From contig JAZGFI010000090.1 in assembly GCA_036479435.1 (NCBI GenBank), forward strand, positions 38,980 through 102,979: a stretch of DNA of 64,000 nt, read 5' to 3'. Below the pieces are notes generated by a model, which had not been told where the DNA came from, made no database searches, and saw only the letters and a list, made by a program, of their open reading frames with translations. Below, in pieces: positions 25,072 to 45,424 of the stretch. Both the position numbers and the translations under genes were made by a program. Position 1 is the stretch's first letter; the number at the start of each line of letters is the position of its first letter. This DNA is from Planctomycetota bacterium. GTDB lineage: Bacteria; Planctomycetota; GCA-002687715; DRQF01.

Positions 25072-25211
25072 TTCGCATCGAGAACCTCAGTCCTCAGCAT
25101 GGTCGAGTTTTCTGTTTGATGAGGTGATTTCTGCGACACATAGAGAAAGGTCCGGACAAATCTAGACACTGACCGACACCTTGCTTTGTTCCCCGATTCG
25201 GCGTCTTACGT

Positions 25212-25601: not shown

Positions 25602-25733
25602 CTCTCATTTTGACGTCGGCTCAGCGAATCCGAATTGCCGGGACCAAGTGTGCATGAGCGAAACGAGGTCTTCTCGACCCATGGCATTAGTGCAACATGT
25701 CGCATTAACCTCGCTTCACTCATGCGTCGTTAG

Positions 25734-25979
25734 CTATTCCTCATTAGGGTTTTCAGTTTGCCCCGGCCAGTTTTTCGGGCAGTCGGCTCTTTCCCATGCT
25801 TCGATTTCATCGAGCCAGAAGAAAACTGTTCCACAGATTTTGATTCGCTTGGGCATGTGGCCTTTGTCCGACCAACGATTGATCGTTTTTTGGCTCACTT
25901 CAAGGCGCTTTGCAGCCTCTGGAACCGTCACACGTATGCGGCCAAAAAACTTGGTATCTTGGGTACTTTCGATAATCAT
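25734..25979 (-). CDS. AlpA-family regulator/excisionase
   Basis: EAAKRLEVSQKTINRW...MPKRIKI...WLDEIEAW. Confidence 0.8.
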   Translation of the reverse strand: MIIESTQDTKFFGRIRVTVPEAAKRLEVSQKTINRWSDKGHMPKRIKICGTVFFWLDEIEAWERADCPKNWPGQTENPNEE

Positions 25980-26505
25980 AATTAATTTATTCGTGGCAGC
26001 TTGATTCGGTCAGACTCACTATCGGTCAAGCGATATCCACTCGACTGTTTGACTCTGGAACCGAATAGCGTGATTCACGACTTTCCTTGATGCGGCAAGT
26101 GGCGCCGCCATTCATCCAAGCGCAGACCAGTTGGCAACCTCAGGAGTGGCTGGATTGTCGGTTCGGTCGAATTGGACGGAGCAGCTCCCGCTTTGTTAGA
26201 GCCGCTGGCCCAGTGATTTTCGCCGCGCATTCCACATACTGTCGAATTCACGGAAGATGAGATTGTTCGGAATTGGACGCGACAGGGAGCTGGCTCAACG
26301 GTGAGACGTCGTGGGTCTCAAGAGAGTGTCCGGCTGAGCAATTTGAAATCTTAGCCCAGTCGCGATGTCCATTCGAAGATATGTGACAATTGGGAGGTTC
26401 TCAACATTTTTCCGGAGGACGATGGCGGTGACGCCAATCTGAAGCACGGAAACCATCCTCCGACAGCCTGCCGAATTGACGCCACCTACTGACTGGGCTG
26501 AATTG

Positions 26506-26967
26506 CTAGTTGTCCGAAGTGCGAGGAATGAGCCCAAGGCCTGCGAGGGATCTATGGCCTGAATCGCCAATGACGACATGATCCAGAATCTCGATCCCAA
26601 GAACATTCCCGGCTTGAAACAGCCTCGTCGTGACGGCGATGTCCTCAGCGCTTGGCGTTGGGTCGCCACTGGGGTGATTGTGCACCAACACGAGAGCAGC
26701 TGCGTTGGCGAGGATAGCCCCTTTGAACACCTCTCTGGGATGCACCAACGAACCGGTGAGCGTCCCCACTGAGATGATCTCGTAGGAGAGGACTTTATTC
26801 TTAGCGTTTAGGTGGATGACGGCGAATCGCTCACGGTCTGTGTCTCGCAGAAATCCCATCACTTGCGCCGCATCTGCTGAGTTAGAGATTCTTTTCGCGA
26901 TAGGTTCGTCCGTTTCGACTCGTACTCTTTTGTAACTGCAGACCAGCTCTCGGATATATTCTTGCAT
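26506..26967 (-). CDS. RadC-like JAB-domain protein (short mobile-element type)
   Basis: VHPREVFK, HNHPSGDPTPSAED, LDHVVIG. Confidence 0.93.
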   Translation of the reverse strand: MQEYIRELVCSYKRVRVETDEPIAKRISNSADAAQVMGFLRDTDRERFAVIHLNAKNKVLSYEIISVGTLTGSLVHPREVFKGAILANAAALVLVHNHPSGDPTPSAEDIAVTTRLFQAGNVLGIEILDHVVIGDSGHRSLAGLGLIPRTSDN

Positions 26968-27104
26968 CTTGAAACTCCTTTAGTTTGAACTGGCTGTTTC
27001 AAGAAAACAAAACACCAGGCCTTAGCGACGTTTGGTGATCTTGGCGGTCTCAGAAGTTGTTCTAGGCTCTGCCGCTATGACACTCCGACCTTCGTGGACA
27101 ATCT

Positions 27105-27758
27105 TTAGGACTTGGTGATTCGCCGATCTCTTGGTGCGCGAGAAGCTCTGGCCTGATGATGTCGGTAGATGGCCCACCATCTGGTATCGACGATGTCGCC
27201 GAACAAGTAGGCCCTGATCCCTGAGGCCCAATGTGGCCAGGCGTGATTGCAAGGTAGTGGCAAGGTCACCTCGAGAAATCGATTGATCACGGATCCAGTT
27301 TCTTTGCGCCGAGATATCTTGATTTGATGCCAGCGTCGTTGGTCAACATCTTCACGCAGTTGTCTGAAGAATTGCGACATCTTTGCTCTTCTCAGGAATG
27401 CAAAAGGACGGGGATGGAGGACGATGCAGGTGCCAGCAGTCACGAAACGGATGACCTTGCCAAACTCAAAGTCGTAGGGTGCCGGCATGGGTTCCACTTC
27501 TCCACCATCGTATGGGTCGTCATGGAGAGGCTTACGTTGCCACGTTGTTTGCCAGTCGGTACTCATGGCAAGGTGAAGCCGTTGTTCTGACGTTAATGTT
27601 GGTACAGGGTGCATTTCGGCTAGTTCATCGAGTCTATCTTCGATGTTACGACCGAGCTCATCCTGGATGTGACCCATCTCGCCAAGGTTGAGTAGGTGTA
27701 TCCGTTCGAGCGAGTCTGAGTGGAAACCTGGGCCTTCAAACCAGTGTGATCTGGACAT
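27105..27758 (-). CDS. Hypothetical protein
   Basis: 217-aa ORF with AAGGAG RBS; no motif recognised. Confidence 0.5.
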   Translation of the reverse strand: MSRSHWFEGPGFHSDSLERIHLLNLGEMGHIQDELGRNIEDRLDELAEMHPVPTLTSEQRLHLAMSTDWQTTWQRKPLHDDPYDGGEVEPMPAPYDFEFGKVIRFVTAGTCIVLHPRPFAFLRRAKMSQFFRQLREDVDQRRWHQIKISRRKETGSVINRFLEVTLPLPCNHAWPHWASGIRAYLFGDIVDTRWWAIYRHHQARASRAPRDRRITKS

Positions 27759-28158
27759 GGACGCTCCTTCTTTGATTTTGAGGTGTATTGAAAGGGGGCC
27801 TAGAAAAAGACCCCCGGGGCATGAAACGCGAAGTCAATTAACCCACGCGTTTCAAATAGATGGCTCGCGAAATTTGTGCGGGAAAACCACCCTAATGGTG
27901 TTTAGGCCAGCAAAACTCACCGATGCTGCTGAGAGTACTCTCGGTCCTTCTTCGATTGCCGGTCCGACGAGTGCGGGTGGAGATGCGCGTCTTTGGATTG
28001 GCGCCGGCGATGAAGTCGTTGAAGGGACGTTTTCGCGGCTTAGCAGCGGGCCGTTTGTCTACTCAAGTGAGCTCAACAGTGAACCGAATAGTCGGCAAAT
28101 TGAAGACCATGCCCCAACCCAGTCCAATGTGCTGGACCTGGGCAGGGCAGATCAGGTG

Positions 28159-29037
28159 CTAGTTGCCAAGCTTTCGAAGTTCAGCGTTTGTTAGCCATTG
28201 ACCATTTTGTGAACACAGCATCCAGATGGCGTTGTCCACGAGCGTTGTCGTTTCGCCGACTTCTTGAGCGAACTCTTCCATGACCGTCATGACCTGGAGA
28301 AATTCATTCTTGTCCAGAGGTTTTGGTTCGGAGCGTCGTGCTTGATCCTTCCAATTTCGGTACTGAACCCAGCCAAACGAACCAACCGCTCGTTTGATGT
28401 GGCGATCGGGTTTTGCAACGTCATAACCGAGATTCTTCAGGGCCTCGGCTGCAAGTGGAACTCCCAATCCGTGGAGTTTGGTTTGTAGGCCTCGATATCC
28501 AAATGCGATGGCAAGCTGTTTGGCGTCTCTTCCTTTCTCTTCGAAAAGGTTGGCAATGTACTGGTCGATCGACCCAAAGTTCCTTGCTCGCCCGAGGAGC
28601 TGCTTCGCTGTCGTGATCGAATACACAAGTTGTTGTCCTAAAAATGCGGACCCAGAGCCTCGACTTTCAAACCAGGGCACTATCCGGTCCTTAACTTCAT
28701 CGATTCCCAAGGCCGCATATCGTTCGATGGAGTAGCCGAAAAAGACGTCTTCGAGCTCGTCTTGGATTCGTTCAATCCTCTCCCAGACGGTGTTACTTGA
28801 AAGCACCGATAAGATGATTCCGCGGAACACTTCGTCATTTGAGAGGGTGAGTCTCCCCTGGCTTCTATCTTCGACAGCCGATAGCTGTCCCCAATCCGCA
28901 ATTCTCTTACGCCAGCCAGCGCTTTGCTGATCAAGGATCTGGCAGATGGTCGACCACCTCTCGCCATGTGTCGCCGACGTGCTTTCCGCTGGAGTCGGTC
29001 TTTCAGGTTCAGGGGCCATGCGAGCGTCACTCTGCAT
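28159..29037 (-). CDS. HhH DNA glycosylase-like protein
   Basis: HGLGVPLAAEALKNLGYDVAKPDRHIKR (HhH followed by KPDxH), VDNAIW. Confidence 0.65.
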   Translation of the reverse strand: MQSDARMAPEPERPTPAESTSATHGERWSTICQILDQQSAGWRKRIADWGQLSAVEDRSQGRLTLSNDEVFRGIILSVLSSNTVWERIERIQDELEDVFFGYSIERYAALGIDEVKDRIVPWFESRGSGSAFLGQQLVYSITTAKQLLGRARNFGSIDQYIANLFEEKGRDAKQLAIAFGYRGLQTKLHGLGVPLAAEALKNLGYDVAKPDRHIKRAVGSFGWVQYRNWKDQARRSEPKPLDKNEFLQVMTVMEEFAQEVGETTTLVDNAIWMLCSQNGQWLTNAELRKLGN

Positions 29038-29353
29038 TGTGGTGTAGTTTTAGTTCGCCAACGGCCAGCACTTCGAAGGTCAGATCATCACCAGCCTTGA
29101 AGCCGAAGCGCGGAAAAAGATCAGAGCCTCTCAGGCGACCGCTTACACCCTCGAATGAAGTGTGGAAGTAGGGAGGATTCGAAGTTGTTGTTCGGATCGT
29201 GCCACGCCATTTCTCTTGCCCAAAGAAAAGATCGACTGGTTCTTTATCTCCGTGGGGAAGAGATGAGGAGTCCCGCCTATCGAAATACAGTTCGAGGTGA
29301 GGAGTCTTTTTATTCGGTTGAATGTCTCGAATGTGACCAATGATCAGCTTCAT
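29027..29353 (-). CDS. Small hypothetical protein, possible DNA-binding beta-barrel
   Basis: 108 aa; GGAG RBS; overlaps downstream gene; C-terminal GFKAGDDLTFEV. Confidence 0.55.
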   Translation of the reverse strand: MKLIIGHIRDIQPNKKTPHLELYFDRRDSSSLPHGDKEPVDLFFGQEKWRGTIRTTTSNPPYFHTSFEGVSGRLRGSDLFPRFGFKAGDDLTFEVLAVGELKLHHNAE

Positions 29354-29385
29354 CTTGTCTCTCCATCGTTAGGGTTTCGAAATTC

Positions 29386-30321
29386 TCAGGATTCTGCCAA
29401 CTCCTCCGAAAGTCCGTCGCCTACGCCATCAAGACCAACAAACTCGTATGAATTACGGCCTTGTCTCATGAGGAACCATGAGTTCTTTCTGCCACTTCGT
29501 TTGACCCCGAGTCGATAGTCAGATGGCAAGGCATGAGTTTCGTTGGAACCGTTGACCAAGTTCAGGTATTCGCGAACGAATTCAGATCGTGTGAATGTGG
29601 TCTTGCCGGATTCGGCGAGAGACTTGGCCGCCTTATAATGGGATAGCTCGCGGCCTCGTAGCTGACCTTCTTCGACTTTCTCAATGGTCTCATTGTGGTT
29701 GCGGATCCGGTCGTCAGGTGTGCGGTCGGTTGAGTCGACGACGATTGGCTCTATTCCCTGTTCCTTCAGCGCCGCTTGAGCTTCTTGCAAATGGCGTTCA
29801 ATTGCCTCAATGAGGATAGGGCACTTGTCATAGAGCACGTATTGCTGAAGAGCACCAATTGGGAGTCCGCAGCCGACGCAAATTCGAGTGCGATCGCCAA
29901 TTCGAGAAAATTCAAACTCGCACTCAGGGCATTTTCCTATCAGGCCAAAATCTGTTTCATGGTCTGGGCACAACAACTGGCCCGGTTTTCTCCTAACCCA
30001 ATGCCAATCAGCGAGTCTGTCGACGGTGTTTAGGCAAAGGGCAACAGTCCCTGGTTCCCCCAAATGTGGAGCTTCAATCCTTGACCGAAGTTGCCTGAGG
30101 GCCGAAGCCTGGTCTCCGGCTCCATGTTCATCCAGTTCATCGCAGATGGCATCGACCAGCCCCCACGGTGCCAGCCTTTTGCCGTGTTCGGATTCCGACA
30201 CGACACTCTGCGCCACAAATGCTTGGCGTGCGATCTCAGCTTGATTCAGATCTAGACGCCTACGATGACGAGCAAGCGTGCTTCCGAGGACTTCGAACGG
30301 TGTTAAATCGTCTCTTATCAT
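29386..30321 (-). CDS. XRE-HTH protein with Cys-rich (Zn-ribbon-like) segment and unknown C-terminal domain
   Basis: LNQAEIARQAFVAQSVVSESEHG; CPDH, CPEC, CVGC; LPSDY...YEFVG. Confidence 0.65.
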   Translation of the reverse strand: MIRDDLTPFEVLGSTLARHRRRLDLNQAEIARQAFVAQSVVSESEHGKRLAPWGLVDAICDELDEHGAGDQASALRQLRSRIEAPHLGEPGTVALCLNTVDRLADWHWVRRKPGQLLCPDHETDFGLIGKCPECEFEFSRIGDRTRICVGCGLPIGALQQYVLYDKCPILIEAIERHLQEAQAALKEQGIEPIVVDSTDRTPDDRIRNHNETIEKVEEGQLRGRELSHYKAAKSLAESGKTTFTRSEFVREYLNLVNGSNETHALPSDYRLGVKRSGRKNSWFLMRQGRNSYEFVGLDGVGDGLSEELAES

Positions 30322-30756
30322 GGTGAATATTAATCAGAATATTATGATATTCAATGTAATATGCGTATTTTCTTAGGCAATTTTGATCAAAGCTGTCCAC
30401 TTTTTGTATGGGGGCCTACCTGCGTAAGTGACGAATAGCAGTAAGGCTTTTTATATTAAGTGCTTAAGGATCATGGCAAGGTGAGCTGATTGAAGGGTTC
30501 GCCCAAGAAAACTTCAAAAATCTCATAGTACGGGGCAAGAGCTTGGTGCCGACATTTTGTTTTTTGTGTGACGGTTTAGGGCTCCATAATGGCCTGTCCT
30601 GGAAGTCCTCGAGGAGGCTCACAGATAGTCCCAGAAGACCTGCGGTTGTAGGCGGGCTTTCGCACAGGCAGGGCAAAAGCTGCTGTGAGGCCCAAAGAAT
30701 GCTCGTGGGGAGACCCTGTCGTCCATCGGCTGCTCGGAGCCATTTCAACGGATCGA

Positions 30757-32412
30757 TTACTTGATCTTAGGCTGAAATCCATACCTTGATTTGTAGTGAC
30801 TCTGCATCGAGTTCCGCAGCAGTTCTTCATCTTCGGCCCGCACAATGAAGGAGTCGTGTACGGGGTGAATTGGGCGGCCCTCCTGCACAAAATCGTTCAT
30901 GATCGCACGCGCAAGTTCTGAGTCTTCGTTTTGGAGCCTCAAACCGACGCCAGTGAAGAACGACTCCTTGATGGGGCTGAGAGCAACGCAGATCCGGTCG
31001 ACGAAGTCGGCGACACTGAGTTCCGTTTCCCAAGGTATCTTTCCGAAATTGACACCCATGCTGATGGCCTTAATCGCCGTCTCTTTTGAGCCGCTGTTCA
31101 AGATGGCTTGAAATGCTGGCTTGCAAGCGTCACGAAGAGTGGGCTTGTCATCCCAATCATCGACCTCGACCTCAGCATAGAGATCACGGCCTTCAACATC
31201 TTCCCCAATGCGGTTGAAGAGGATCCTTGGATGGAGGCAAGAATAATCCAGCTCAACAGTCGCCTTGCCATCAATGCGAATCAGCCTGCGATCGGAAGAG
31301 GGAAAGCTCTGGATATAGGAGCGATAGAAGCGTCCGCCTTGCTGAAACGAAGCGTTGCTGAAGATCCGGCAGAGTCTCAGGAGGTCAGGGGCAAGCACAA
31401 TCCGATCGTTTTCCTCCATGACCAGATGATTGTCATGAGCTATAGGGTCATAAACAAACCGACAACAGAACGAAGAGGATGCAGGCGCGAAATAAGTGTC
31501 GGCAGAGCATTGAACGAAGGACGGGATCAAGGAGTTGCTGACATCAACCCTTCTATTGTGGCTTGATGAATGGTGCCCCTCGTCCTTACGGCTGTGTCTT
31601 TTTCTCCTCAGGAGATAGGCCCGTAAAACGGATTTGGGTATGTCAACGGGATGTCTCTCGTTCAGAGAGTTCAGAGAGATTAGATCTAATCTCATACCCG
31701 TCGTCACCGCAGTTTCCTCGTAGTCGATGAGGGTTTTTTCTTGGTCACGCAACACAATGACTTCGGAGGTCTGGTCGTCAAGGCACGCAGTTGCATCAAA
31801 GGAACTCTCGAGCATCAGATCTCGGAGCCAACCGATGGGGCGTATTTTTGTCATCATGTGACCCTTCTTGCCCCGGAATACGGAGATGCCGCCAAGCTTC
31901 TCAAGACGATCTCTTACTTCAACCATGGCCTCATGGGACAAGCCGAACTCTTGGTATCGGTTGAGCCGGCGGTAGTGCTTGCGATTAAACGAAATGCCGA
32001 GCCAGACCCTACGGTCATCTGCCAACGCTGTATTGACCTGTTCCAAGGCAACCGTGCGAGCGAGATTTGACAGCAGGATGTGGAGAGTACGCCGCTTCAA
32101 TTCGGCATTCTTGAATTTGGTGTAGGAGATTCCAATCCGCGCTATGACTTGAGCCACTAAGTCCCGTGCTGTAGGTGCTCGGTGAACGAGCGAGACCCAA
32201 AGGCTCTTGTCCCGATGATCAATCTTCAAGCATTTCGGCAGGCAACGAATCACGCTGGAGAGAATCGGGGGATCCTGATTGGAAACTGATCCAGTCTTGT
32301 CTACTTCGACACTTGCTAAGGGCCGAGTATCGTCCTGAGCGTCATTTTTCTGTTCAGGCTGCCCAGCGGCTTCGTGTCGTTGATCTGCCCTCGACCTAAA
32401 CTGATCATGCAT
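30757..32412 (-). CDS. Minimal family-A / T7-RNAP-like nucleotide polymerase
   Basis: GGRFY; motif A VELDYS; motif B RxxxK...LN; motif C PVHDSFIV; start uncertain (32412 overlaps upstream stop). Confidence 0.75.
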   Translation of the reverse strand: MHDQFRSRADQRHEAAGQPEQKNDAQDDTRPLASVEVDKTGSVSNQDPPILSSVIRCLPKCLKIDHRDKSLWVSLVHRAPTARDLVAQVIARIGISYTKFKNAELKRRTLHILLSNLARTVALEQVNTALADDRRVWLGISFNRKHYRRLNRYQEFGLSHEAMVEVRDRLEKLGGISVFRGKKGHMMTKIRPIGWLRDLMLESSFDATACLDDQTSEVIVLRDQEKTLIDYEETAVTTGMRLDLISLNSLNERHPVDIPKSVLRAYLLRRKRHSRKDEGHHSSSHNRRVDVSNSLIPSFVQCSADTYFAPASSSFCCRFVYDPIAHDNHLVMEENDRIVLAPDLLRLCRIFSNASFQQGGRFYRSYIQSFPSSDRRLIRIDGKATVELDYSCLHPRILFNRIGEDVEGRDLYAEVEVDDWDDKPTLRDACKPAFQAILNSGSKETAIKAISMGVNFGKIPWETELSVADFVDRICVALSPIKESFFTGVGLRLQNEDSELARAIMNDFVQEGRPIHPVHDSFIVRAEDEELLRNSMQSHYKSRYGFQPKIK

Positions 32413-32725
32413 TGAGATTGGCCTCCGCTGCTGTTCGGAGCGAGTCCAGTCGTCCGTGAGTATCATCGATCCGCCAATCAAGGTATCTGACGCAATCACC
32501 GATCACCTGTTGAACCTCAGCGAAGAAATAGCCGCCCATATGAGAGCAAGTCGGAAGACTCTCCACACCGATTAGGTAACGGATTGCCATGGGGGTCTTA
32601 CGTCGCCTTGAGCCGTCTTTGATGCCGACTTCCATGCCGACCTCGTATGAGTACCTTGAATTCGATCGACCTACTGAGATCTGTTCCCCTACCCAGCTAA
32701 TTTCGTTGTGGGTTGATGCAGCCAT
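32405..32725 (-). CDS. Hypothetical protein coupled to the polymerase-like gene
   Basis: Strong AGGAGG RBS; stop overlaps the ATG at 32412. Confidence 0.5.
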   Translation of the reverse strand: MAASTHNEISWVGEQISVGRSNSRYSYEVGMEVGIKDGSRRRKTPMAIRYLIGVESLPTCSHMGGYFFAEVQQVIGDCVRYLDWRIDDTHGRLDSLRTAAEANLNA

Positions 32726-33118
32726 TTTTTTGCCTCCTATCAAGAGAATTGGGCGTCAGGAGCGATGCCTCAATCACTGATTAGCGCTGACAATTGGTGG
32801 CGGCAATGTGCCTGACTGGGCTTGTCCGAAGATGTCCAGGGAATTCAGCTCCTGCTCTTCGTTGTCGGAGAAATGTAGCGATCGATCGGCATGCCGGTTG
32901 GCAACACAAGCGCAGTGTGTTCTTGACTGTGCAGCTAAATGACTAGCAAGTCATGAGATCGTTGTGATCAGATTTGTCGACGAATGGGCTGTCACAAATG
33001 CGCGCTCCGCAGCGAATGAGATCGACAGGGTAGATGATAAAGACCAAGGGATTCCCATCCGACCAATTCCCTTGCAAGCGATGATTAGGCGAGACGTCCA
33101 GTCGGCATTGCCCAAAAC

Positions 33119-34045
33119 CTACAGCTGTTTCGTTCCGTGGATCGTTGACGGCGCATCGACGAATTTTAGCCCATTCCCCTGGACAAAAATCTTCCATCGA
33201 TGCTCATATTGGGCGATCGAAAGGATGTTGAAGTCGTCAGTTTGCCCGGGTTGTCCATCTTCAATCCCGTCGCCGCATTTCACTCCGCCAAGATCGGTGA
33301 GCACGTACCGGTTATGAAATCGTTCACCGCCTGGGTCATCGAGCCAGCGACTAAATTTAACCGTGCAGCCAATAGGGAGTTTCTTGGCGAATTCGGACGC
33401 TTGTTGTTCAAAGAAAGCAAAGGTGCCTGTACGTTCACCGTGCACGTGGAGCATAAGACTCACTTCGCGACATCCAACCCGCGTGGCGACGACCGATAAC
33501 TCCTCCAACAAGATGCGGCAGCGTGCCTTTTCAAACGCGAAATGTGGATCAACTATGTGTATTTCTTTGGCTTCAACTAGAAAGGAACTCAGAGCTTTGA
33601 CTATTTTCGAAGCGGAGCGCTCAACAACGTCTCCGTTTTCCAAATCCCAAAGTGGATTAGCGAGAACACCCAAGTCCTTGGCAAGTAGAAGTTTTGAGAA
33701 ATTCTCGGCCGACCGCATGGCAATGACCCCTCGGTATGATGCTCGGTCATACTCTGATCGAGCGTTCTCAAGCCACGAGATTTCCGGGTCATATGTCTGG
33801 GCCACCCTTCTGGCACGTGGTCGACCAAGCATCTTGCAGAGTTCGGTTAATCGAGTCTTATCAAATTGTGACAAGTCCATTTCCAACGCGAGAGCATGCA
33901 CAGATCTCACCCACTTGGAGTATTTCGGGATTTCTATAATCACTCGAGGCGTCCCGATTCCAAATTTGTCGACGATGTATCGAAAGTTGGATGGTTTTGC
34001 CCAATCAATGCAAACTTCAGGTTCGACAGCGAAGCAGTGGATCAC
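33119..34045 (-). CDS. Protein with C-terminal PLD/MIT_C-like putative nuclease domain
   Basis: IHIVDPHF and FHNRYVLTDLGGVKCGDG; 1-nt overlap with the ATPase gene. Confidence 0.6.
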   Translation of the reverse strand: MIHCFAVEPEVCIDWAKPSNFRYIVDKFGIGTPRVIIEIPKYSKWVRSVHALALEMDLSQFDKTRLTELCKMLGRPRARRVAQTYDPEISWLENARSEYDRASYRGVIAMRSAENFSKLLLAKDLGVLANPLWDLENGDVVERSASKIVKALSSFLVEAKEIHIVDPHFAFEKARCRILLEELSVVATRVGCREVSLMLHVHGERTGTFAFFEQQASEFAKKLPIGCTVKFSRWLDDPGGERFHNRYVLTDLGGVKCGDGIEDGQPGQTDDFNILSIAQYEHRWKIFVQGNGLKFVDAPSTIHGTKQL

Positions 34046-35514
34046 TATATGAGTTCCCGCATTCGTTCATCGAAAAACCCGTCGGGCCAGTTGTCAAGGA
34101 ATTCACCATCTTCAGAGATTCTCAACTCCTTGATGCAAACGTCCCCGTCAATCTGATCGACATAGAGAACCGCAACATCTTCAGTGGTAACCGGATCCGT
34201 TTCAAACGGCAGTTCACCTTCCGATGTCTCTCGAATTCGACGTAACAACCTCAGGATCAAATGTTCACTGTGGGTTTCAATGAGAAACTGCCTTTCAGAA
34301 CATTGGCTGAGAAACAGATCACCCAATGCGACTTGCATCCTAGGATGAATGTGCAACTCAGGCTGTTCGATCGCGACGATTGTCACAATTTCTCGCGTGC
34401 CCAAGGGTGTATCCATAGTCGGTGACAGTGCGGCAACAACAACCGGGACTACTTGACCAATTCCCTCGCCAAGATCAGCAGGAGACAGGTCCAGAAGTTT
34501 CGTCTCATCAAAAACCACAAGCCGACCGATTTCCGGAAGATGATCAGTGAGCGCATCAAAATTCTCGTCGAGTTCACCATTCATGGCAGCCGCGCGGAGC
34601 CGGTCGAACATCGCACCATCGAACTCACGCAGGGTTTTCCAGACAATTTGATATCCGGTGTCCAGTCTTGACTCGTGACTCAGCCACTTGTTTGCATCTT
34701 TTCGAATAGTTTCGTCAATTGAAAGCAGGTCCCATGCGCCGAGCCCGCACGCCCATCTGCTTTCATCCAAACGCCTTGGTGATCGATAATTGCGATCAGG
34801 TACTTTGCGAATTGGTCCAACATATCTGAAGGTTGAGAGCTCGTCTCTCAACAGATCACATGCGCCGGTCAACAAATCCCCAGCAGACCGATAATAGTTT
34901 TCAACGTCTTCCGAATCCTCGGACTCCTCGAACTGCACGCTGCATCCGACCTCTGGAAGCGCCATCCGATTCCCAATTGAGCAAGCCACTTTGTCGGTGA
35001 GCACGATTGGCAAGTCACCTTCACCTTCGTACCCCAAGATTGGATTCGCGAGATTCAGATTCGTCAACCAGACATTGGAACCACCTGAGCTGCAACCGAA
35101 CTCTGCAAACGGGTCTCCGTTGAACCCAACGGCCAGCCTGTCAACAATTGGCCGTGCAAGGGGAATGCTCCAACAAACCCGAATCTCAACACTAATTGTC
35201 TCGAAACTAAACTCGGCCGACTCCAATTCAACTCCCTCTGACGGCGCAAATTCAAACCCTACAGTGATTGAATTAGTGAGGTCGTGATTGTTGACGTAGC
35301 TCTGATATCCGCCAAGGTCTAAGTCGCCACCGAGGCGTGTGCGCCCAACGTCCGGATCACCAAGTTCAAGCATCGCTTGCGCATAATGAACTGCATGCAT
35401 TACGGTGCTCTTCCCAGCACTATTTGGACCGAACAACAGAGTGATTGGCTTAAGACTCAATTCCTGACGGTCACTAATGCCCTTGAAGTTCTCTATGGAG
35501 ATTCGACGAATCAT
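34045..35514 (-). CDS. ABC-type (AAA_15/21) ATPase with DUF3696-like tail
   Basis: Walker A GPNSAGKS; signature DLGEGIGQVVP; IEQPELHIHP; ETHSEH; WPDGFFD. Confidence 0.88.
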   Translation of the reverse strand: MIRRISIENFKGISDRQELSLKPITLLFGPNSAGKSTVMHAVHYAQAMLELGDPDVGRTRLGGDLDLGGYQSYVNNHDLTNSITVGFEFAPSEGVELESAEFSFETISVEIRVCWSIPLARPIVDRLAVGFNGDPFAEFGCSSGGSNVWLTNLNLANPILGYEGEGDLPIVLTDKVACSIGNRMALPEVGCSVQFEESEDSEDVENYYRSAGDLLTGACDLLRDELSTFRYVGPIRKVPDRNYRSPRRLDESRWACGLGAWDLLSIDETIRKDANKWLSHESRLDTGYQIVWKTLREFDGAMFDRLRAAAMNGELDENFDALTDHLPEIGRLVVFDETKLLDLSPADLGEGIGQVVPVVVAALSPTMDTPLGTREIVTIVAIEQPELHIHPRMQVALGDLFLSQCSERQFLIETHSEHLILRLLRRIRETSEGELPFETDPVTTEDVAVLYVDQIDGDVCIKELRISEDGEFLDNWPDGFFDERMRELI

Positions 35515-35516
35515 GT

Positions 35517-36701
35517 TCAGAGTTCTCCTTTGTATGCGCATTGAGAAAGCGAGTCAAATAACTCAGCAGCGCGTTTTCTGTGGAGCTCGAAGTTCCGTTT
35601 CGCAGAGCGCGCATTGTCATGCAAGGCTAAGAAATCTTCTTGTAAGGGCTTGGGAGGCGTGATTATCTCTAATCCACCAAGGCCTCGAGTGTTGATATTG
35701 TAGTTCCCTGCAGTCGTCTTTGCTTCGCGAATCAAACGAGACCTAAAAGTTGGAAATGACACAACGCTCTGTATGAACTGGCTTGAGGTGGGTGAGCCTG
35801 GTGTGAGGCGCGCTCGTATCAAGTATGAGGCAAAAAGCGCCTCTCGCTTGTCATCGAAAACCGCACACCGACCGATGTGATCAGGATTGCCATTCGTTCT
35901 GACAAAGAGAAGATCGTCTTGCTGAAGAAGGACTCGATTCGCCTCAGCTTGTTCAAGCGTTGTGTATTTTAGGTCAACCCAGTTGATTCCACCGTTCTTT
36001 ATGTTGGGGATGCGAAGAACGGGGCGAGACCCTTCTATTTCGGTCAATGCGCATTTCTTTGAAGTGCCATAGCGCATCTCAGACGTTAAGCTGTCCAGGC
36101 GGCAAGAATCCCACCCCTTGGGATTTTTTACAGGATCACCGAACATATTGTGGAAGGCTGAGCGGAGGAAATCTTCGGTTAGGGCAATGGACTCTTGCCG
36201 TTTTCGTCTGATTGCGTCGGCTTTGTCGAGGATGTCGGCGATGCGCCTTTGTTCAGGGAGAGATGGGAGGGGGACCGAAAGCGTTGCGAGTCTCGAGAAA
36301 GAAATCGCCTTCCGTCGATGAACGGACCCATTCCCTAAGAGTTCATAAGTTGCAAGTGCTTCCGGCGATTTCAGAAATCGAACAAGGTACTCAGGCAAAA
36401 CCTCATTAGTGTCAACTTCGAACCCAGTATACATCGGACTAATAATGCAGTCTTCTGGGCCAATACCAATTGAGCCTTCGTCAAGGTGAATCGTTGCGTA
36501 AGCTATCTCGTTTTTGTGTATCTCTTTGTAGCCTTTGGTATCTCGACTGAATACCTGTTTTTTAAAGTACTCGAGGCTCGGAACGAAGCCACTATGTTTT
36601 GTGACCGCGTAGACGGGCAACTTAGATCCCGTCTTCGCACGCCGCTTGACTTCTCGCGAAACGCTTCCCAACAGGACTCTCGAAAAGGATCGATCCTTCA
36701 A
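35517..36701 (-). CDS. hsdS: Type I RM specificity subunit
   Basis: Two TRDs; [42 protein letters not shown]. Confidence 0.95.
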
Positions 36702-38233
36702 GACAATAGTCCCTCTAATTCATCGAGGTCTGAAGTGATTTCTCTTTCCAACATCCTAATTTTCTCAATAATGATTCGCGGCTTTTCAGTCTTGGCTTCT
36801 TCGTAGACGACTTCCTTGTATCGATTCATGGAAAGGTCGTAATTCTCATCTCTAATTTCGTCAGCCGACACAAAGAAAGCCTGCGCCTTTCGATCATTTA
36901 GTTTCTTGGCGTCTCTTTTTCGCCATTGCTCAACAACATCGGGCAAATCATTTTCTTCAACCGGTCCAAGCGGTGTTTTTTCTTTGGATGCCTCCGCACG
37001 TTTGTCATCTAGAGAATAACCATCCCGCTTAACGTCATAGAAGAAAACGTTGTCTGTTTTTCCACCTTTTGTGAACACGAGGATGGCCGTTGACACACCG
37101 GCATAGGGCTTGAAAACGCCGGACGGCAAGGAGATAACCGCTTCAAGTTGGTTTTCGTCCACGAGCAGTTTGCGCAGCGATTTGTGGGCACCAGATGAAT
37201 TGAAAAGAACGCCGTCGGGAACGATGGTAGCACTCCGACCGCCCAACTTAAGCATCTGTAAAATAAGCCCAACGAATAGTAACTCCGTCTTCTTAGTTTT
37301 GACTTTCCGAATCAGCGAAGGATGCACATCGGCATAGTCAAGGCTACCCTTGAACGGTGGATTCGCAAAGATGACGTCAAAAGCGTTCTCTGCAAACTGT
37401 GGAAACTTCTCAGGAAACGAATTACTCAGGGTATCTCGGTAGTGAATCCCTGGATTGTCGACTCCATGAAGCATCATGTTCATAGCCGCAATGCGCAGCA
37501 TCGTCACATCAAAGTCGAAACCATGAAACATGTCTTTTTGTATGTGCTCGCGATAGGGCTCGAGCTTGTCGCCTGTGAAAATGATGCTGCCGTCCTCAGC
37601 TTTGATTTGTCCGGCTTTGGATGTATGAGTTTCAAGAAGATATTGCATGGCCCCAACTAAGAAACCTGCGGTGCCACAGGCAGGGTCAGCAATTGTTTCG
37701 TCTGGTTTTGGTTCAAGTAGCTCAACCATTAGCCGAATGATGTGTCTTGGAGTTCTGAACTGCCCATTGATGCCGGCTGTAGTCAACTTGCCAAGCAAAT
37801 ACTCGTAGAGGTCACCTTTGGTGTCGCCGGAGGTGAGAGGAAGTTCATCGACCATGTTGACTGCCTGAACCAAGAGGCTCGACTTCTGAATCATCAGCTG
37901 AGCATCAGCCATGTACTCACTGAAAGTGTCTCCTTCGCTGAGATTCCGTAGATGTTTGAATACGTTGTCACGAACCATCGGCATCATTTTCTCACCGCTG
38001 AGGTGCTTGAAGCTCGACCAACGAAACTCCTGCTCATCTTTAGCGAACACTGGCTGAAACTGCTTCTTTGATCTTGCGGCACGTATCTCGCTGGCAGACT
38101 CTTTGACGTCGAGCAAGCGGATGAACATCAGAAATGAGATCTGCTCAATGACAGTGAGGGGATTGGTAATCCCGCCTGTCCAAAAGGCTTCCCATAGTTT
38201 GTCAATCTTGCTTCTAAGTGGACCAGTAATCAT
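36698..38233 (-). CDS. hsdM: Type I RM N6-adenine methyltransferase
   Basis: [24 protein letters not shown]. Confidence 0.97.
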
Positions 38234-41200
38234 GCAGAGTGTCCTCGGACATCAGGAAAGTTGAATCGGTCAATCAGTGTCAGCAGCTCGTCAATGAGTT
38301 TGCCTTCAAAGACGCCATCGACGCCGTTTGAGCTGATTGATGTAAATGGTGGATCATAAAGACGGTCGACTTCGAGACCGCCATTCGCGCAAATGTATGC
38401 TTGAAGAATTGAGATGAATTGCAGCTGCTGTGAAGTCAATTCTGTGTGCTTGTGAATGAACTCAGTAAAACCCACATCCACTGCCTCGGTGTCTAAGCCA
38501 ATGATGCTTCGAAGCGCACGGTGCAAATCACCAGCCACGTCGATCTTGATGGGTAGGTTCTTGAGATCGACCTGTGGGTCGACTCTTAGAATCTTCAATG
38601 CCAGATCGTCCAAGTCCTGTTCCGAGACGGCCTCGCCGGCTTTGATTCGAGCGAGGGTAGGGTCTGCCACGAAGTGTGATTCCAAAACTTCTTGGACGCG
38701 CTGTCTGTAGGCAATGAGCTCTTGGCCATCGACCTTCGGGGTGTGTGACTCGGCCACCATAAAGCTGTCTTTCACATCGATTGTGACAGGATCAATCCTT
38801 GGCGCAGCAATCACAATCTTATGTTTCATGATCGACCGCAGATCAGTTCTCAAGTGCTCAAGGTCCGCAAGAGATGCACTTTCCCAGAACTCATCGCTTC
38901 GAACTTGGAGAATGCTGTCGGTCTTTGCTTTCACCTGGTTCAGATTCTTGGGAAGAGCCTCGACTTCATCTTTCAGCTGGCCAGCCAAGTCTGCGTATTC
39001 GCCAGATTCTTGTAAGAGAGAGGTCTGCATGCTCGTCATCAGCAGGTCGTGTCGATAAGCGTCTTCGTTCCCTCTGATGTCACACCAACGCATGAGTGGT
39101 GACACAATGTCGACCAAGGCTGCGTGGGTAGCGGCAGCAAAGGACTTGAGAGTGGCTTCCGAGCCAAGCTCCTGGAGGTTCTTCCAATGATCTCGGACTC
39201 CGATTGCCTTGGAGTTCTTAAGGAAGTTGATGTCAGCTCGAATCAGCTTTATGGCACCCTGGAAGGCCACTTCGTTCATCTTCTCCAAAGCAACTCGCGC
39301 AAACTCGACTCGAGTCCTGAAGACGCGTTCCATGAGTGACTTCGTCGGCGCTGGACTCTGCTCTTCGAAATGCTCGTCAAAGTACTCAAAGTTGCCCCAA
39401 TGATCGAAGATGAGGAATTCAGTCTTGTGCATGCCAGGACCAAAGAGGTTAGGACAAAGTCTGGTTCCACGTCCGATCATCTGCCAGAACTTGACATAGG
39501 ACTTTATCGGCTTGGCGAAGACCAAGTTCACGATCTCGGGCACGTCGAGGCCGGTATCCATCATGTCGACTGAGATTGCGATGCGAAGCTCGTGGTCTGG
39601 GTTCTTGAAATCATCAATGAGCTGCTCTGCTCTGGGATCGTAGTTGTCGATCACGCGGCAGAAATTGCCACCATACATGGGATAGAGCTCTGAAAAGACT
39701 TCAGAGAGATGCTCTGCATGTTTGTGACCACGGGCAAACACAATGGTCTTCCCTGGTAGGCTTCCAGACTCATCGCTGATTCCATTTTCCATCAGATTTC
39801 GAAGGATGTGACGGCTGGTATCCTTATTGAAAATCTTGCGGTCAATATCGGTTGACTCGTGCTCTATGAGTTGAGCGTCTTCTCTTTGTGCTTCAAGTTG
39901 TCGCTGCTCATCAGCCGTCATTTGGCTGTACTTGATCCCGTCACGAAGAAACTTCGTGGTGACTTTCGAGACTCTAAACGGTGTTAAATATCGAGGTGAG
40001 TGGTTGATGGCTTCTTCAAAGGTGTAGCTGGCCGTTGGATCACGGTCTTCGCAACCAAATAGGTCATAGGTATTGCGATCAACGAGATGAATCGGTGTAG
40101 CTGTCAGGCCCACTTGGCAGGCATCAAAATACCTGAATATGTCACGGTACTTGTTGTAGATGCTGCGATGGGACTCATCTGCGATGATCAAATCGAAGAA
40201 ACCGACATCAAAAGTCTCAAAACATTTGATCATGGCTGGATAAGTGGCGAGATAGATTCTCTTCTCGCGATCGGAAGCGGTCTTCGACGTCACAAACACA
40301 CGTGGCTCGGTGGGCAGAAATTCCTTGAACGTGTTGTCGGCTTGCTTGCGAAGTTCTCGACGGTCACAAAGGAAGAGGATGCGTTTGGCCCAATTGGCTC
40401 GGAGCATGACATCACAAATAGATATCGAAACGCGAGTTTTACCCGTGCCGGTGGCTTGCACAATCAGAGAGTTTCGATGCCCTTCTGAGAACCTCTCTGT
40501 GACCCGCTTGATTGCTTCCATCTGGTACATGCGACCAGCGATTTCCGGCTTGGGTGCGACTAACTCGAGGGTCTTTTTCTGGCTTCGCTGAAAATGCAAG
40601 TATTCGAGGCTGTCCTTGGAATAGAAACCGTAGAGTTTTCTGGGAGGGAAGTTCTGGGCATCATCCCAGAGGTGAGTATTCACACCATTCGTGTAAAAGA
40701 TGATGGGGCGTTGATCGTGCCTTTTCTCAAGTGAATCGGCATAGAGTTTTGCTTGAGTTCTCCCTGCCTCAGCAGACTTCGAAGTCTTCTTGGCCTCTAC
40801 GACTGCCAAAGGTTTGCCATTGTCGCCCCAGAGAACATAGTCTGCATAGCCATCGCCGGATTTTGTTGGCTGACCATCAACCTTGATCTCTTGGCCAACT
40901 TCTTGGGTATCAGCTCCATTGGCACCGACATCCCATCCCGCTTCGACAAGTAAAGCATCGATGAGGAACTTTCGAGTTTCTGCTTCGCTGAATTCAAGTT
41001 CTGTCGCCGCTGTTTGACCGGCTGTACGAAGACTGGCTAATTCCGCTTCTGTGGCTCTTTCGAGTTCTTCTCTCGATTTTCGCTCTTCGTCTAGAGACTT
41101 TAATACATCTGAGAGCTGTGCTTCTTGTCTGGCAAGTTTTTGAAGTAGCTCTTTCTTCTGACGCTTGAGGCTACCCTTTGTCACTTCTTGGACCGTGTCC

Positions 41201-41613
41201 TCGAGTGCGCTAAAGGCAGGTATCTCGTCCGGATTTCCAGCGTCAAAGACGACATGAAACCAACGCCCTACATCGAAAGCTTCCTTAAGAAGTGATCTTA
41301 CGGTGTCTTTTGCAGCTGCCTCGCCATGCGCAGCCCGATTACCTCGAATGCGGAGGGCGTGCATTTTTTGGATGACGATGTCTGGAACCGAGTCTTCAAA
41401 GACACTCGCCATCAAGAGATCATTGAGGTTGGCGCGGAGAGCCTTAGGTAGATTCCTTGCGTCGTAGATATCCTCGACGACCTGCTCGACAAAGGTGCGT
41501 AGCTTCACCAATGCACTGGATGGGTCTGTCGTTGAGTAGCGCTCAGCGAATGCACCCAAGGTGGCAAGTTCAGCTCTTTTGTCTCGGAGGAACTCGAAGT
41601 TCTTAGACTTCAT
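38230..41613 (-). CDS. hsdR: Type I RM restriction subunit (DUF4145-like N-terminus, EcoEI-type C-terminus)
   Basis: ADY...VEAK nuclease, [34 protein letters not shown]. Confidence 0.97.
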
Positions 41614-41780
41614 GGCATCCTCCTATCCTTGCGAGAAGTGTCAATTCCGTTGCATCCGTTTGACTCATCAAGCACCAACCATTCTTGATCAACTCGCTTG
41701 AGTCGTCGCTTTTAGTTGTCGCATGGTGAGTCATCTGGTCACTTCCTTTGGCCGCACAACAATGAGCAGCAGAATTTCAG

Positions 41781-41800
41781 CTATCGCACTTTTCGTGCCG
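41781..41800 (-). promoter_or_regulatory. Sigma54 (-24/-12) promoter upstream of hsdR
   Basis: Minus strand CGGCACGAAAAGTGCGATAG (GG-N10-GC). Confidence 0.75.
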
Positions 41801-43306
41801 TTACGAATCGATGCCATGTTTTTTCATCCGATTGCTTAGTGTCTGATAGCTCGAAAGACCAAGCAGCTTGGCTGCATTGCTCTTATTCCCTGCTGCTTCT
41901 TCTATGGCACGCTCGATGTAATGTCGCTCTACAACGCCTAAGACTACATCTAGATCGAGATCTGTACCAAGAGAACGCCCTAAGATGTCAGATGCCGATG
42001 CAGCAATCGCAGGAAGCAAGGATTCTCTCGCGTCTTCAACCGTCATGGTCGCACCGTCTGACCAAATTGCCATTCTTCGCAAGGTATTGAGCAGCTCGCG
42101 CACATTTCCTGGCCACGAGTGCGACATCATAAGATTTCTTGCGCCAGCAGAGAGTTTCTTATCAACGAATCCTGGCTCGCCTTTCGCCTCATCGTTTACC
42201 TTCTTCATCAAATGGTCAAGCAGAAGCCCCAAATCGCCAGAACGGTCACGTAACGCCGGTATCTTGATGATGGCGACTGCCAGCCTATAAAAAAGGTCTT
42301 CCCTAAATCGACCGGAAGCGATCTCCTCGGTCAACGTCCGGTTTGTGGCGGCCACAATGCGAACGTCGATCTTGGTGGGCTTGGTTGCACCCAAGCGGAC
42401 GACTTCATTTTGATCGAGCACACGCAGCAGCTTGACCTGAGACAGCGCTGGCAATTCACCTATTTCGTCAAGGAATAGAGTGCCACCCTCTGCTGCTTCG
42501 AAGTAACCCTTCTTCTGCTTGGCTGCTCCGCTGAATGCTCCTTTCACGTAGCCAAAGAGCTCAGACTCGACCAATTCCGAGGGAATGGCGCCGCAATTCA
42601 CCGATACGAACTCACCTTTTGAGCGCGGGCTCGCCTTGTGAATCGCTCTGGCCAGCATTTCCTTGCCAGTTCCAGACTCGCCTTCAATCAACACTGGGAC
42701 ATTCCTGATGGCAACACGCCCTGCACGCTGAACCAGGCGGCTCATCACTCGGCTTCGATGGATGATGTCAGCAAATTCAGGTGACTCTGGCGAATCAGCA
42801 TGACTGAGCTCTTTAAGCCGTTCATCTCGTTCACGCAGTAGTTCCGGAATGAAATCCATGGATATGTCGAAGGGAACATCCACGACACGAACACCGTGAT
42901 CTCTCGATGACTCGATCAACTCTGCTTGAAAGCGGGTCTTGCCAAGCAGAATCCACACAGCTGCCATTGCTGGTGTGCCGGGGCTTAAATGAAACGTGAA
43001 TTTGACATCACTCTTTGTGCTTTCTTGAGCAGCCTCACAGCGCTGAACGACGGCTTCATGGATCTCCCCGAACGCAGTAGGTCCACTGAGTGACTCAACC
43101 GCAAGCTCAAGATCACCGCTATACCGCTCTCGGAGCCAATCGACATAGGGCACGGTGTCGGATTCAGGGTAATTCGTCATCAGGACCACGTGGTCATAGG
43201 ACTGCTGGGACAGAGCCTGTGCCACTGGTCCAAGCCCGACTTTGTCTGATTCTTTAGGAGCCCGAAGGTCAGTCAGTCCGACCCAAGACATGAGGATTTT
43301 GCGCAT
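41801..43306 (-). CDS. Sigma54 enhancer-binding protein with CARF/RtcR-like N-terminal sensor
   Basis: GESGTGKE, ESELFG, GAFSGA, FLDEIG, FREDLFYRL, WPGNVREL, Fis-type HTH; N-terminal FHLSPGTPAM; ATG at 43306. Confidence 0.92.
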   Translation of the reverse strand: MRKILMSWVGLTDLRAPKESDKVGLGPVAQALSQQSYDHVVLMTNYPESDTVPYVDWLRERYSGDLELAVESLSGPTAFGEIHEAVVQRCEAAQESTKSDVKFTFHLSPGTPAMAAVWILLGKTRFQAELIESSRDHGVRVVDVPFDISMDFIPELLRERDERLKELSHADSPESPEFADIIHRSRVMSRLVQRAGRVAIRNVPVLIEGESGTGKEMLARAIHKASPRSKGEFVSVNCGAIPSELVESELFGYVKGAFSGAAKQKKGYFEAAEGGTLFLDEIGELPALSQVKLLRVLDQNEVVRLGATKPTKIDVRIVAATNRTLTEEIASGRFREDLFYRLAVAIIKIPALRDRSGDLGLLLDHLMKKVNDEAKGEPGFVDKKLSAGARNLMMSHSWPGNVRELLNTLRRMAIWSDGATMTVEDARESLLPAIAASASDILGRSLGTDLDLDVVLGVVERHYIERAIEEAAGNKSNAAKLLGLSSYQTLSNRMKKHGIDS

Positions 43307-43313
43307 GTCTGAT

Positions 43314-43335
43314 AAATACAAGATTTCTTGTATTT
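43314..43335. promoter_or_regulatory. Perfect palindrome, probable activator binding site
   Basis: AAATACAAGA-TT-TCTTGTATTT. Confidence 0.65.
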
Positions 43336-43524
43336 TGACAAGATACCTTACCTGTATTCTCCAAAACTCTGCTCAAGCAGGCCACAGGGAACGATTTGAA
43401 GATCTTCCACATCACAAAAGATCGTTGCTGATTGATCTCATGGGCCATATCCCCGAACGATAAGGCTCGACCCTATCCATTCTCCCAGCCAGTGCGTCCG
43501 AGCACTCCAAGCACAGAATCCGTT

Positions 43525-43544
43525 TGGCACGCCGGGTGCGATAG
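43525..43544 (+). promoter_or_regulatory. Sigma54 (-24/-12) promoter upstream of the DUF2130 gene
   Basis: TGGCACGCCGGGTGCGATAG, 45 nt before ATG 43590. Confidence 0.8.
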
Positions 43545-43589
43545 AAGAAGCCAACAAGAAACATCAAAACCAATATCGCGAGCAATCAC

Positions 43590-44843
43590 ATGAACAACTC
43601 AATCACTTGTCCTGCATGCAAAACTGACTTCGAGATTAGCTCGGCGTTGCGCATGCAACTCGACGCAAAGATCCGAAGCGAACTTGCCGTAGAAACTGCG
43701 ACCAAAGAGTCGGCGATCAAGAAAGCACAGCTGCAACTCAAAAAAGACCAATCGAAGTTACAGGACTCGGAAGAGGAAATTGCGCAACTCGTCAAAGCTG
43801 GAATCAAGACAGAAACTCACAGACTGGCCACTCAAGCTAAGAAGCAAGCAATGGCCGACCTCGCCGTTGAAACGGAGGCTCATGCTCAAGAGCTGAAAGA
43901 AACGCAGTCGAAGCTCAAGGAATCACAAGCGAACGAACTTCAGTTGAGGAAGAATGAAAGAGATCTGAAGTCACGGGAGGAAGCCATGAAACTCCAAGTT
44001 GCACGTCAGATGGATGCGGAGCGGACTCAGATCATAGACGAAGCGAAGAAGCAGCAAGCTGAGCAGCAACAATTAACGGACGCCGAGAAAGAAAAACAGA
44101 TCTCCGGTCTCAGAGAGACTATTGACCTACTCAAGCGCAAGGCGGAGCAAGGATCCCAACAACTTCAAGGCGAAGTCTTTGAACTGGCTTTAGAGGAATT
44201 GCTCGAAGCTTCCTTCCCTACAGACTCAGTTGTTCCAGTCGCAAAAGGAGTTCGCGGTGGCGATGTGCACCAAACCGTCTTGAATCGGGCCGGACTGGAT
44301 TGTGGTCAGATCATGTGGGAAACGAAAAGGACCACGAGCTGGAATAATGCGTGGCTTGCGAAGGCTCGAGACGATCAACGAGATGCGCGTGCAAGCTGCG
44401 CTGTCATCGTCAGCCAGGCTCTTCCGAATGGGATCCAGACTTTCTCACTGATTGAAGGAGTCTGGGTCTGTTCCTGGAAATGCGTCACAGGGTTGGCGAC
44501 TGCTTTACGACAAGGGCTGATCGAAGTTGGCAAAAGCAAACTTGCACAACTTGGACAGAACCAAAAAATGGAGCTGGTCTACAACTATTTGGCTGGCAAG
44601 GAATTCCAACTTCGTGTGGCCGGTGTAGTTGAGGCATTCATGACCATGAAAAGTGACCTCGAATCAGAGAAACGCGCAATGACTCGTATCTGGTCCAAGC
44701 GAGAGAAGCAATTAGAGCGTGCCTTCAACAACACTGCCGGTCTCTATGGCGATGTGGAGGGAATAATTGGCGCTTCAATGCCGACCATCGAAGGGTTGAC
44801 GTTGCCACTGATTGAAGACACGCAGCAACAAGACAAATCTTGA
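43590..44843 (+). CDS. DUF2130-family coiled-coil protein
   Basis: N-terminal CPAC; long coiled coil; SQQLQGEVFE, KGVRGGD, WETKRT, W.KREKQ. Confidence 0.85.
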   Translation: MNNSITCPACKTDFEISSALRMQLDAKIRSELAVETATKESAIKKAQLQLKKDQSKLQDSEEEIAQLVKAGIKTETHRLATQAKKQAMADLAVETEAHAQELKETQSKLKESQANELQLRKNERDLKSREEAMKLQVARQMDAERTQIIDEAKKQQAEQQQLTDAEKEKQISGLRETIDLLKRKAEQGSQQLQGEVFELALEELLEASFPTDSVVPVAKGVRGGDVHQTVLNRAGLDCGQIMWETKRTTSWNNAWLAKARDDQRDARASCAVIVSQALPNGIQTFSLIEGVWVCSWKCVTGLATALRQGLIEVGKSKLAQLGQNQKMELVYNYLAGKEFQLRVAGVVEAFMTMKSDLESEKRAMTRIWSKREKQLERAFNNTAGLYGDVEGIIGASMPTIEGLTLPLIEDTQQQDKS

Positions 44844-45380
44844 ATCAACTAAACGTTTGCGCAGCTTCCCTTGGGGCAATGGATCAAGGCGATGTGATCA
44901 AAGATCTTCAATGATCGTTCTTGCCACGCCAGGCAAGACGCTCGTTTCTCACCGATTGGTCATTTTCATGAATGTGGGTGCAGTTGTCTTGCAGCAGTGG
45001 GGCACACAGCGAAGCCATTGGTCTTGGGCGAACGAGTTGACAACAGACATGATTGGCTGGGCAAGTCTCGTTCTTGGAGGTTCGTATTTCCGAGACGTGA
45101 GGAAGGGCAGATCTTCAATCTTCGGGTAGACCTATCGGACCTCTCGTTTGATCAGGACTCCAACAGAGCAGGGGAACGAACGTCTTCGGTTGTTCGAAGA
45201 GTAACCGCTTGTTGAGATGTGCGACTCGTGAGGATCAAGCTCGCGGTTACCGTATCCGCAACCGAGCGTAACCCGTTGCGATTCGGTTCAACCAATGCAA
45301 CGCTTGCTACATTTGCAACCGAACAGTAACGTCATGGATGACATGAGGTTGCACAAGAAGTGGGGGAGGCCAGGAACGGC

Positions 45381-45424
45381 TTCACACCGAAGAGGTCACT
45401 GGTTCGAATCCAGTATCGCCCACT
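45381..45424 (+). repeat. attR: duplicated 3' half of tRNA-Val
   Basis: TTCACACCGAAGAGGTCACTGGTTCGAATCCAGTATCGCCCACT. Confidence 0.95.

Follow-up and report, generated by a model that had tools for sequence, protein, structure and literature searches.

Candidate sigma54 promoters and tandem operator-like sites around a CARF activator gene in a mobile restriction-modification island of a Planctomycetota bacterium

According to a 2025 review (PMC12707154), surprisingly little is known about the transcriptional regulation of restriction-modification (RM) systems of type I, and the accessible part of that review does not mention sigma54, RtcR or CARF. Here we analyzed a 64,000-nucleotide stretch of a Planctomycetota genome (the window), in which a gene for a predicted sigma54 activator lies between a type I RM operon and a divergent DUF2130 gene. 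A sequence-only reading had proposed that twin sigma54 promoters put both under this one activator. The question raised by the locus is whether the two promoter-like boxes are real, and to which sites the activator might bind.

The activator and its neighbors on a mobile island

The activator gene (41801..43306, minus strand) encodes a 501-amino-acid CARF-AAA+-HTH protein of the RtcR_PspF2 (PspF-like) family, with Pfam matches PF00158 and PF02954. The full-length match to the PADLOC model PDLC01995 (647 bits, E 8e-195, residues 8-504) was far above those to PspF1 (242 bits) and RtcR (196 bits). PspF1 and PspF2 are reportedly defined in a 2020 paper on CARF classification. In the structure model, residues 1-148 matched the CARF domain of Csm6 (Z 16.7, rmsd 2.2 over 141 residues), and residues 1-149 aligned with the CARF domains of Csm6, Can2, VC1899 and Csa3 at Z 12-16.7. 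The CARF domain is followed by an NtrC-type AAA+ domain and a Fis-type HTH, and the Walker A/B, arginine finger and sensor II motifs are present. The sigma54-contact loop reads GAFSGA, found in only this 1 of 38 aligned family members, 22 of which have GAFTGA; GAFSGA also occurs in two other activators of this genome, which has 16 strong PF00158 matches. In the accessible part of a study of PspF (PMC3467059), the T86S variant binds only one of two sigma54 patches. The start codon is most likely ATG 43306 rather than TTG 43321, because most homologue matches start on this methionine or beside it.

An identity as RtcR proper, the regulator of rtcBA, was rejected, since the NF038308 score was 334 bits against a cut-off of 650 and the rtcB pieces are on other contigs. 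RtcB is encoded in two pieces on contigs C209 and C74, one of them at a contig start, away from the locus. The activator query had no match at E 1e-100 in 22 genomes sampled from the same taxonomic family or order.

Downstream of the activator on the minus strand are hsdR (38230..41613), whose product carries DUF4145 together with nuclease and helicase motifs, hsdM (36698..38233) and hsdS (35517..36701). All three have open frames and match PADLOC REase_I, MTase_I and Specificity_I, respectively. They are followed by a gene for an AAA_15/AAA_21 ATPase with DUF3696 (34045..35541; PADLOC PDC-M55A and NsnB matches) and by a last gene (33119..34045) for a weakly MIT_C/PLD-like protein, assigned from an Atlas cluster with PF16565 on 17% of its members. 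The gene order hsdR-M-S-ATPase-PLD with a divergent DUF2130 gene was thus as the sequence-only reading gave it, except that the "PLD" product had no Pfam, NCBIfam or PADLOC match. The gap between activator and hsdR, 187 bp, is longer than in relatives. A 43-codon open reading frame with a plausible ribosome site (41603-41734, minus strand) fills this unusually long hsdR leader and overlaps the hsdR start, and it may be a chance occurrence.

On the other side, the DUF2130 gene (43590..44843, plus strand; PF09903) encodes a protein that starts with a CxxC motif and is predicted to combine a long coiled coil with a PD-(D/E)XK nuclease-like domain at about residues 187-315 of the model. Fold matches to PD-(D/E)XK nucleases were uniform but weak (best Z about 10, Foldseek E 0.008 or weaker), and E195, D225, E244 and K246 are invariant. 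The divergent genes of myxobacterial loci had no significant BLASTP match to this protein and weak Pfam DUF2130 matches in 2 of 5 tested, so they were rejected as orthologues and are distant relatives.

The whole cassette is carried by a 22.1-kb integrative island (23251..45424), delimited by 44-nt direct repeats (23251-23294 and 45381-45424) and marked by a GC dip, with tRNA-Val(CAC) (23219-23293) at its end and a tyrosine integrase (23427-24647). The rest of the island (23427-32743) contains, besides the integrase, a RadC-like JAB gene, a protein with a weak OGG match (28159-29037), an HTH protein (29386-30321) and a 580-amino-acid open reading frame (30757-32499).

Sigma54-type boxes and their conservation

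The 19-nt element GGCACG-N4-GTGCGATAG is present in two copies facing outward from the activator gene, each with exact GG-N10-GC spacing, as the sequence-only reading had described. The minus-strand copy (element 41781-41799 within box 41781..41800; GG 41799-41798, GC 41787-41786) is the putative -24/-12 box of the hsdR operon, with a predicted start at about 41774, and begins 2 bases past the activator stop codon TAA (41801-41803). The plus-strand copy (element 43526-43544 within box 43525..43544; GG 43526-43527, GC 43538-43539) is the putative box of the DUF2130 gene, with a predicted start at about 43551. No third copy was found in the window at two or fewer mismatches or in the 5.47-Mb genome. 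At up to two mismatches the window holds 2 occurrences of the pattern against 0.19 expected, for a pattern that was defined after the fact.

Each box is weak when taken alone. Using a sigma54 consensus, we found that the hsdR box matched 9 of 12 positions and the divergent box 10 of 12, and that matches at the 9/12 level occur in the genome at 0.47 per kb per strand. The window contains 32 consensus matches at up to two mismatches, which is at chance level (29.9 expected); the divergent box is among them and the hsdR box is not. There is also no genome-wide excess of the sigma54 spacer (15 matches, compared with 11-20 at other spacers). The boxes were accepted as real because of their position and conservation, not because of their consensus score: they have the GG-N10-GC spacing and the correct orientation, they are conserved, and the host has an intact rpoN, RpoN box included. 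The 15 shared bases emphasized by the sequence-only reading are true of this locus (15 of 19) but peculiar to it, since the two boxes agree at 8-12 of 19 bases in 17 other two-box loci. We therefore rejected the identity as a functional signature, and also as a host preference, because the 15 genome-wide matches to a looser box had no common tail.

To assess conservation, we collected 48 loci and used the 39 with full-length matches (L040-L048 were omitted at this stage), which with the window made 40. A downstream box (at least 9/12 within 60 nt of the activator stop) was found in 31 of 40 loci, compared with 2 of 40 on the opposite strand and 2.6% of random windows. A divergent box (at least 10/12 within 330 nt upstream) was found in 20 of 40 loci, compared with 3 of 40 in the same-strand control and 3.2% of random windows. 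Thus, both sites recur in homologous loci, as the sequence-only reading would have it. When the window around the stop was widened to -80..+130, which catches genes with a moved stop at the price of a higher chance rate, the downstream box was found in 36 of 40 loci. The loci are related (52-97% identity, with about 10 lineages below 70%), so that these counts are not independent.

The boxes also co-vary with the genes that they precede. A defence-gene query matched downstream in 32 of the 36 loci with a downstream box and in none of the 4 without, and a divergent box was present in all 17 loci with a divergent DUF2130-like gene and in 3 of 23 without. The downstream box stays while the genes behind it vary, including several HsdR types, fused methyltransferases, vWA-PP2C-kinase and ATPase genes. 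This genome encodes 15 further activators, one of them truncated at a contig end, and none had a box after the stop; among 23 non-CARF activators of other genomes, 1 did. In a survey of 102 DUF2130 loci, 89 of which had enough upstream DNA, a divergent-type box was found in 3 of 3 beside this activator family and in 3 of 86 others. A general sigma54 control of DUF2130 genes was thus rejected (box in 6 of 89 loci). These results supported the assignment of the boxes, on sequence grounds, as conserved sigma54-type promoters tied to this activator family.

Two further observations concern the wider family. Among the downstream boxes of L001-L038, 16 of 36 read GA instead of GC at -13/-12, mostly in myxobacteria, as a conserved non-canonical sigma54 element. 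The same activator family also heads a BREX system (L190:7278-16322), as well as vWA-PP2C-kinase modules and fused methyltransferase-specificity-ATPase genes (loci L053, L054, L024 and L026; L019, L022 and L031). Azotobacter chroococcum and Vitreoscilla filiformis, both cultured and non-pathogenic, are among the carriers of the family.

Tandem palindromes before and within the activator gene

While the boxes of the two-promoter map held, the sequence-only reading had missed two tandem palindromes that are candidate binding sites for the activator. The upstream pair (43317..43352), in which YRYAAG-N4-CTTRYR occurs twice with a period of 20, is 10 bp before the activator ATG, and is a candidate for both the activator operator and the enhancer of the divergent promoter. 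Period 20 fits best in 35 of 40 loci, and an unseeded count of nested palindromic dyads gave 24-27 of 40 upstream regions, compared with at most 7 after shuffling. In the window (43307-43352) and in homologues, the upstream pair shares bases with a -35/-10 arrangement of sigma70-like type, whose -10 ends in T in 29 of 40 loci but not here. Because the start codon closely follows this arrangement, activator transcripts may be short or leaderless. Scans for sigma70 promoters and terminators were at or below chance.

The inner pair (42128..42163) is within the activator coding sequence, in the codons for KKLSAGARNL (codons 382-393), 346 bp from the hsdR box, and is a candidate enhancer of the hsdR promoter. 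It was detected with a matrix built from upstream sites alone. From the first set, 38 genes were used, L032 and L039 being dropped for broken frames, and 12 held-out genes brought the total to 50. The inner pair was the best tandem site in 49 of these coding sequences and beat synonymous recoding in 48, including all 12 held-out genes. Recoding was tested wherever a gene scored highest, so that the p-values are flattered, but this position was identical in 49 genes. At the window locus, the inner pair beat recoding at p of about 0.01. Since four-fold sites are saturated (0.35 versus 0.32 expected), ancestry does not explain the pair.

The codons themselves are unusual. The top four of 494 columns for rare synonymous codons, and 8 of the top 10, fall in the inner pair, and at one alanine position GCA is used in 34 of 38 genes, compared with 288 of 2134 alanine codons overall. 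The rare codons are carried by 9 of about 10 lineages below 70% identity. The same region scored at most 0.6 bits in 23 non-CARF activators, and the pair was absent from more distant CARF activators (33-38% identity). Two such activators (L066 and L068, 33-36% identity) have strong sigma54 boxes 102 nt past the stop without this operator; for that reason, they probably use a different binding sequence. A second, weaker cluster of rare codons is found at codons 459-463 (numbered from TTG 43321; window about 41920-41935), about 130 bp before the hsdR box, and does not fit the IHF consensus. Between the inner pair and the hsdR promoter, no conserved match to an IHF consensus was found.

In the genome, only two tandem operators score at least 18 bits, and both are at this locus; a scan of the window with the window itself omitted from training again gave these two (37 and 23 bits). 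A wider regulon was therefore rejected, as there is no third such operator. Of 46 loci with a box, 38 have a distance of 342-352 bp between the inner pair and the downstream GG, even where the stop codon has moved, a constancy due in part to conserved protein length. At this locus 191 bp separate the upstream pair from the divergent GG, more than the 60-85 bp of 17 other loci. A search for the upstream pair at period 20 failed in 7 of 11 held-out loci, among them 4 of 5 proteobacterial plasmids; one of the loci without it, L061, keeps a strong single site. Taken together, the tandem palindromes are likely to be the activator's own operators.

What remains of the defence regulon proposed by the sequence-only reading is a set of conserved sigma54-type boxes tied to the activator family, an intact rpoN, and operator-like sites flanking both promoters, whereas the twin identity carries no conserved meaning.

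A model for the cassette and its place among known systems

We propose, as the probable reading of these sequences, that the defence cassette is mobile and is governed by its RtcR-like CARF sensor-activator. This protein would bind two tandem operators, of which one precedes its own start and the other is part of its own coding sequence, and would switch on two outward sigma54 promoters, one for the type I RM operon and one for a predicted coiled-coil nuclease. Activator dimers would bind the 20-bp-spaced palindromes. A CARF ligand, which by analogy with RtcR may be a nucleic-acid fragment from damage or infection, would release the AAA+ domain and so trigger both promoters. The upstream pair would reach the DUF2130 promoter by looping and, being only 10 bp from the start codon, probably repress the activator's own promoter, and the inner pair would loop 346 bp to the hsdR promoter. 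Sigma54 promoters need an ATP-driven activator at tandem sites, which are typically 80-150 bp away and can act from farther, as stated in the accessible parts of PMC7910581 and PMC7408454. The 346 bp of the inner pair exceeds this typical range and counts against its reading as an enhancer, as does the lack of a conserved IHF match. At this locus, the low consensus scores of the boxes (9 and 10 of 12) and the serine of the GAFSGA loop, where GAFTGA has threonine, are further points against the model.

It is also conceivable that the promoters are activator-driven and that the inner pair is an auxiliary operator, of which lac O2 is an example, serving an autorepression loop or roadblock. The hsdR promoter would then respond to the upstream pair at a distance of 1.5 kb, or need no specific enhancer. 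Three loci (L030, L032 and L037) keep a strong inner pair with no downstream box or defence gene, so that the pair may serve autoregulation, and sigma54 enhancers can work over at least 1 kb (PMC7408454, accessible part). However, of 5 proteobacterial loci, 4 lack the upstream pair and yet keep the inner pair, three of them with the box at the usual distance, and in L035 the inner pair and downstream box were lost together along with the downstream defence gene, while the upstream pair and divergent box were kept. We consider autorepression an unlikely account of the inner pair.

Somewhat less probable still is that the family layout is real and this copy has decayed or become effectively constitutive, the RM genes being expressed by read-through from the activator promoter and the boxes contributing little. 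The GAFSGA loop, the departure of the boxes from consensus at 2-3 positions, the spacings longer than those of relatives (191 bp, and 187 bp before hsdR) and the failure to find a strong terminator between the genes would fit such decay, but open frames in all genes, the scores of both operator pairs with the window left out of training and the recoding result for the inner pair speak against it. That boxes and palindromes arose by chance, or merely accompany a conserved protein sequence and common descent, is strongly disfavored and very improbable: single consensus matches are at chance level in the window and the twin identity is not conserved, yet the strand, shuffle, synonymous-recoding, saturation and non-CARF controls all argue against it, as does the persistence of the box while downstream genes change.

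Under the activator-driven model, the RM operon need not be fully off before induction. The stretch from activator to hsdR showed no strong terminator, so that read-through from the activator promoter could supply a basal level, and no clear signal of an internal hsdM-S promoter was found in the ends of 14 hsdR genes. It thus seems likelier that induction boosts a basal level than that control is all-or-none; if the RM operon were completely off, the chromosome would stay unmethylated.

The sequence-only reading called sigma54 control of type I RM unusual. It is less so than claimed, because such control was already predicted and because RptR and BrxR are published regulators at RM or defence islands. 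In their accessible parts, Makarova et al. 2014 (PMC4012209) describe a PspF-like family beside R-M systems with predicted sigma54 activation of downstream genes, and Bell et al. 2024 (PMC11090510) predict that RtcR-like CARF activators drive downstream type I RM via sigma54. The present locus agrees with theirs in family (PDLC01995) and gene order, the CARF gene being immediately followed by type I RM, and a member from the 2014 supplement (NC_008757, 126975-128513) is 48% identical to this activator. The promoter boxes, operator sequence, intragenic sites and divergent DUF2130 partner identified here are in neither paper as far as accessible, and DUF2130 identifiers are absent from the accessible PspF-neighborhood table of 2014. 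In the open-access literature, we found no description or test of these cis-elements and no experimental test of signal-gated sigma54 control, predicted since 2014.

The comparison extends to other regulators, each known from the accessible part of its report. RtcR of E. coli and Salmonella, which controls the rtcBA RNA-repair operon, shares the CARF-AAA+-HTH architecture and a divergent sigma54 promoter beside the activator's own (PMC9879122); apart from the NF038308 score, the locus here differs in its restriction and nuclease-like targets and in having an inner operator pair and, downstream, a second promoter. RptR (PMC12255303) and BrxR (PMC9122601) are likewise dedicated regulators of type I RM or BREX islands and have palindromic sites there, but they are repressors, whereas an ATP-driven sigma54 activator is predicted here. 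Tandem activator sites within upstream coding sequences are already established for Nla28-type intragenic enhancers of Myxococcus xanthus (PMC7910581); the sites here belong to the gene of the activator itself and occupy the same codons across many lineages. ShdA/RmuC-like coiled-coil nucleases beside type I RM, named by Bell et al., share with DUF2130 the long coiled coil and a PD-(D/E)XK-like domain, which for DUF2130 is predicted from weak fold matches. DUF2130 differs in starting with CxxC instead of a membrane helix and in being divergently transcribed, and none of 39 DUF2130 members had an RmuC family match.

The regulatory cassette is thus well supported by sequence as real and as belonging to an already predicted family, to which we add a base-level map of two promoters and two operator pairs, one within activator codons. 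These provide base-level targets for the predicted alarm-signal control of defence genes. Silent recoding of 12 codons could probe the inner enhancer with the protein unchanged, and a reporter on these promoters could help in the hunt for the CARF ligand. The inner pair further offers a clear example of how codon choice in distant bacteria can be shaped by a likely regulatory site. With about an even chance of being right, we suggest that the activator gene is a self-contained portable switch, with sensor, motor, enhancer in its own codons and promoter at its stop, which would keep restriction genes low until a nucleic-acid signal arrives. If this is true, type I RM, BREX, vWA-PP2C-kinase modules and fused methyltransferases, like any defence module placed behind the activator, would alike become alarm-inducible.
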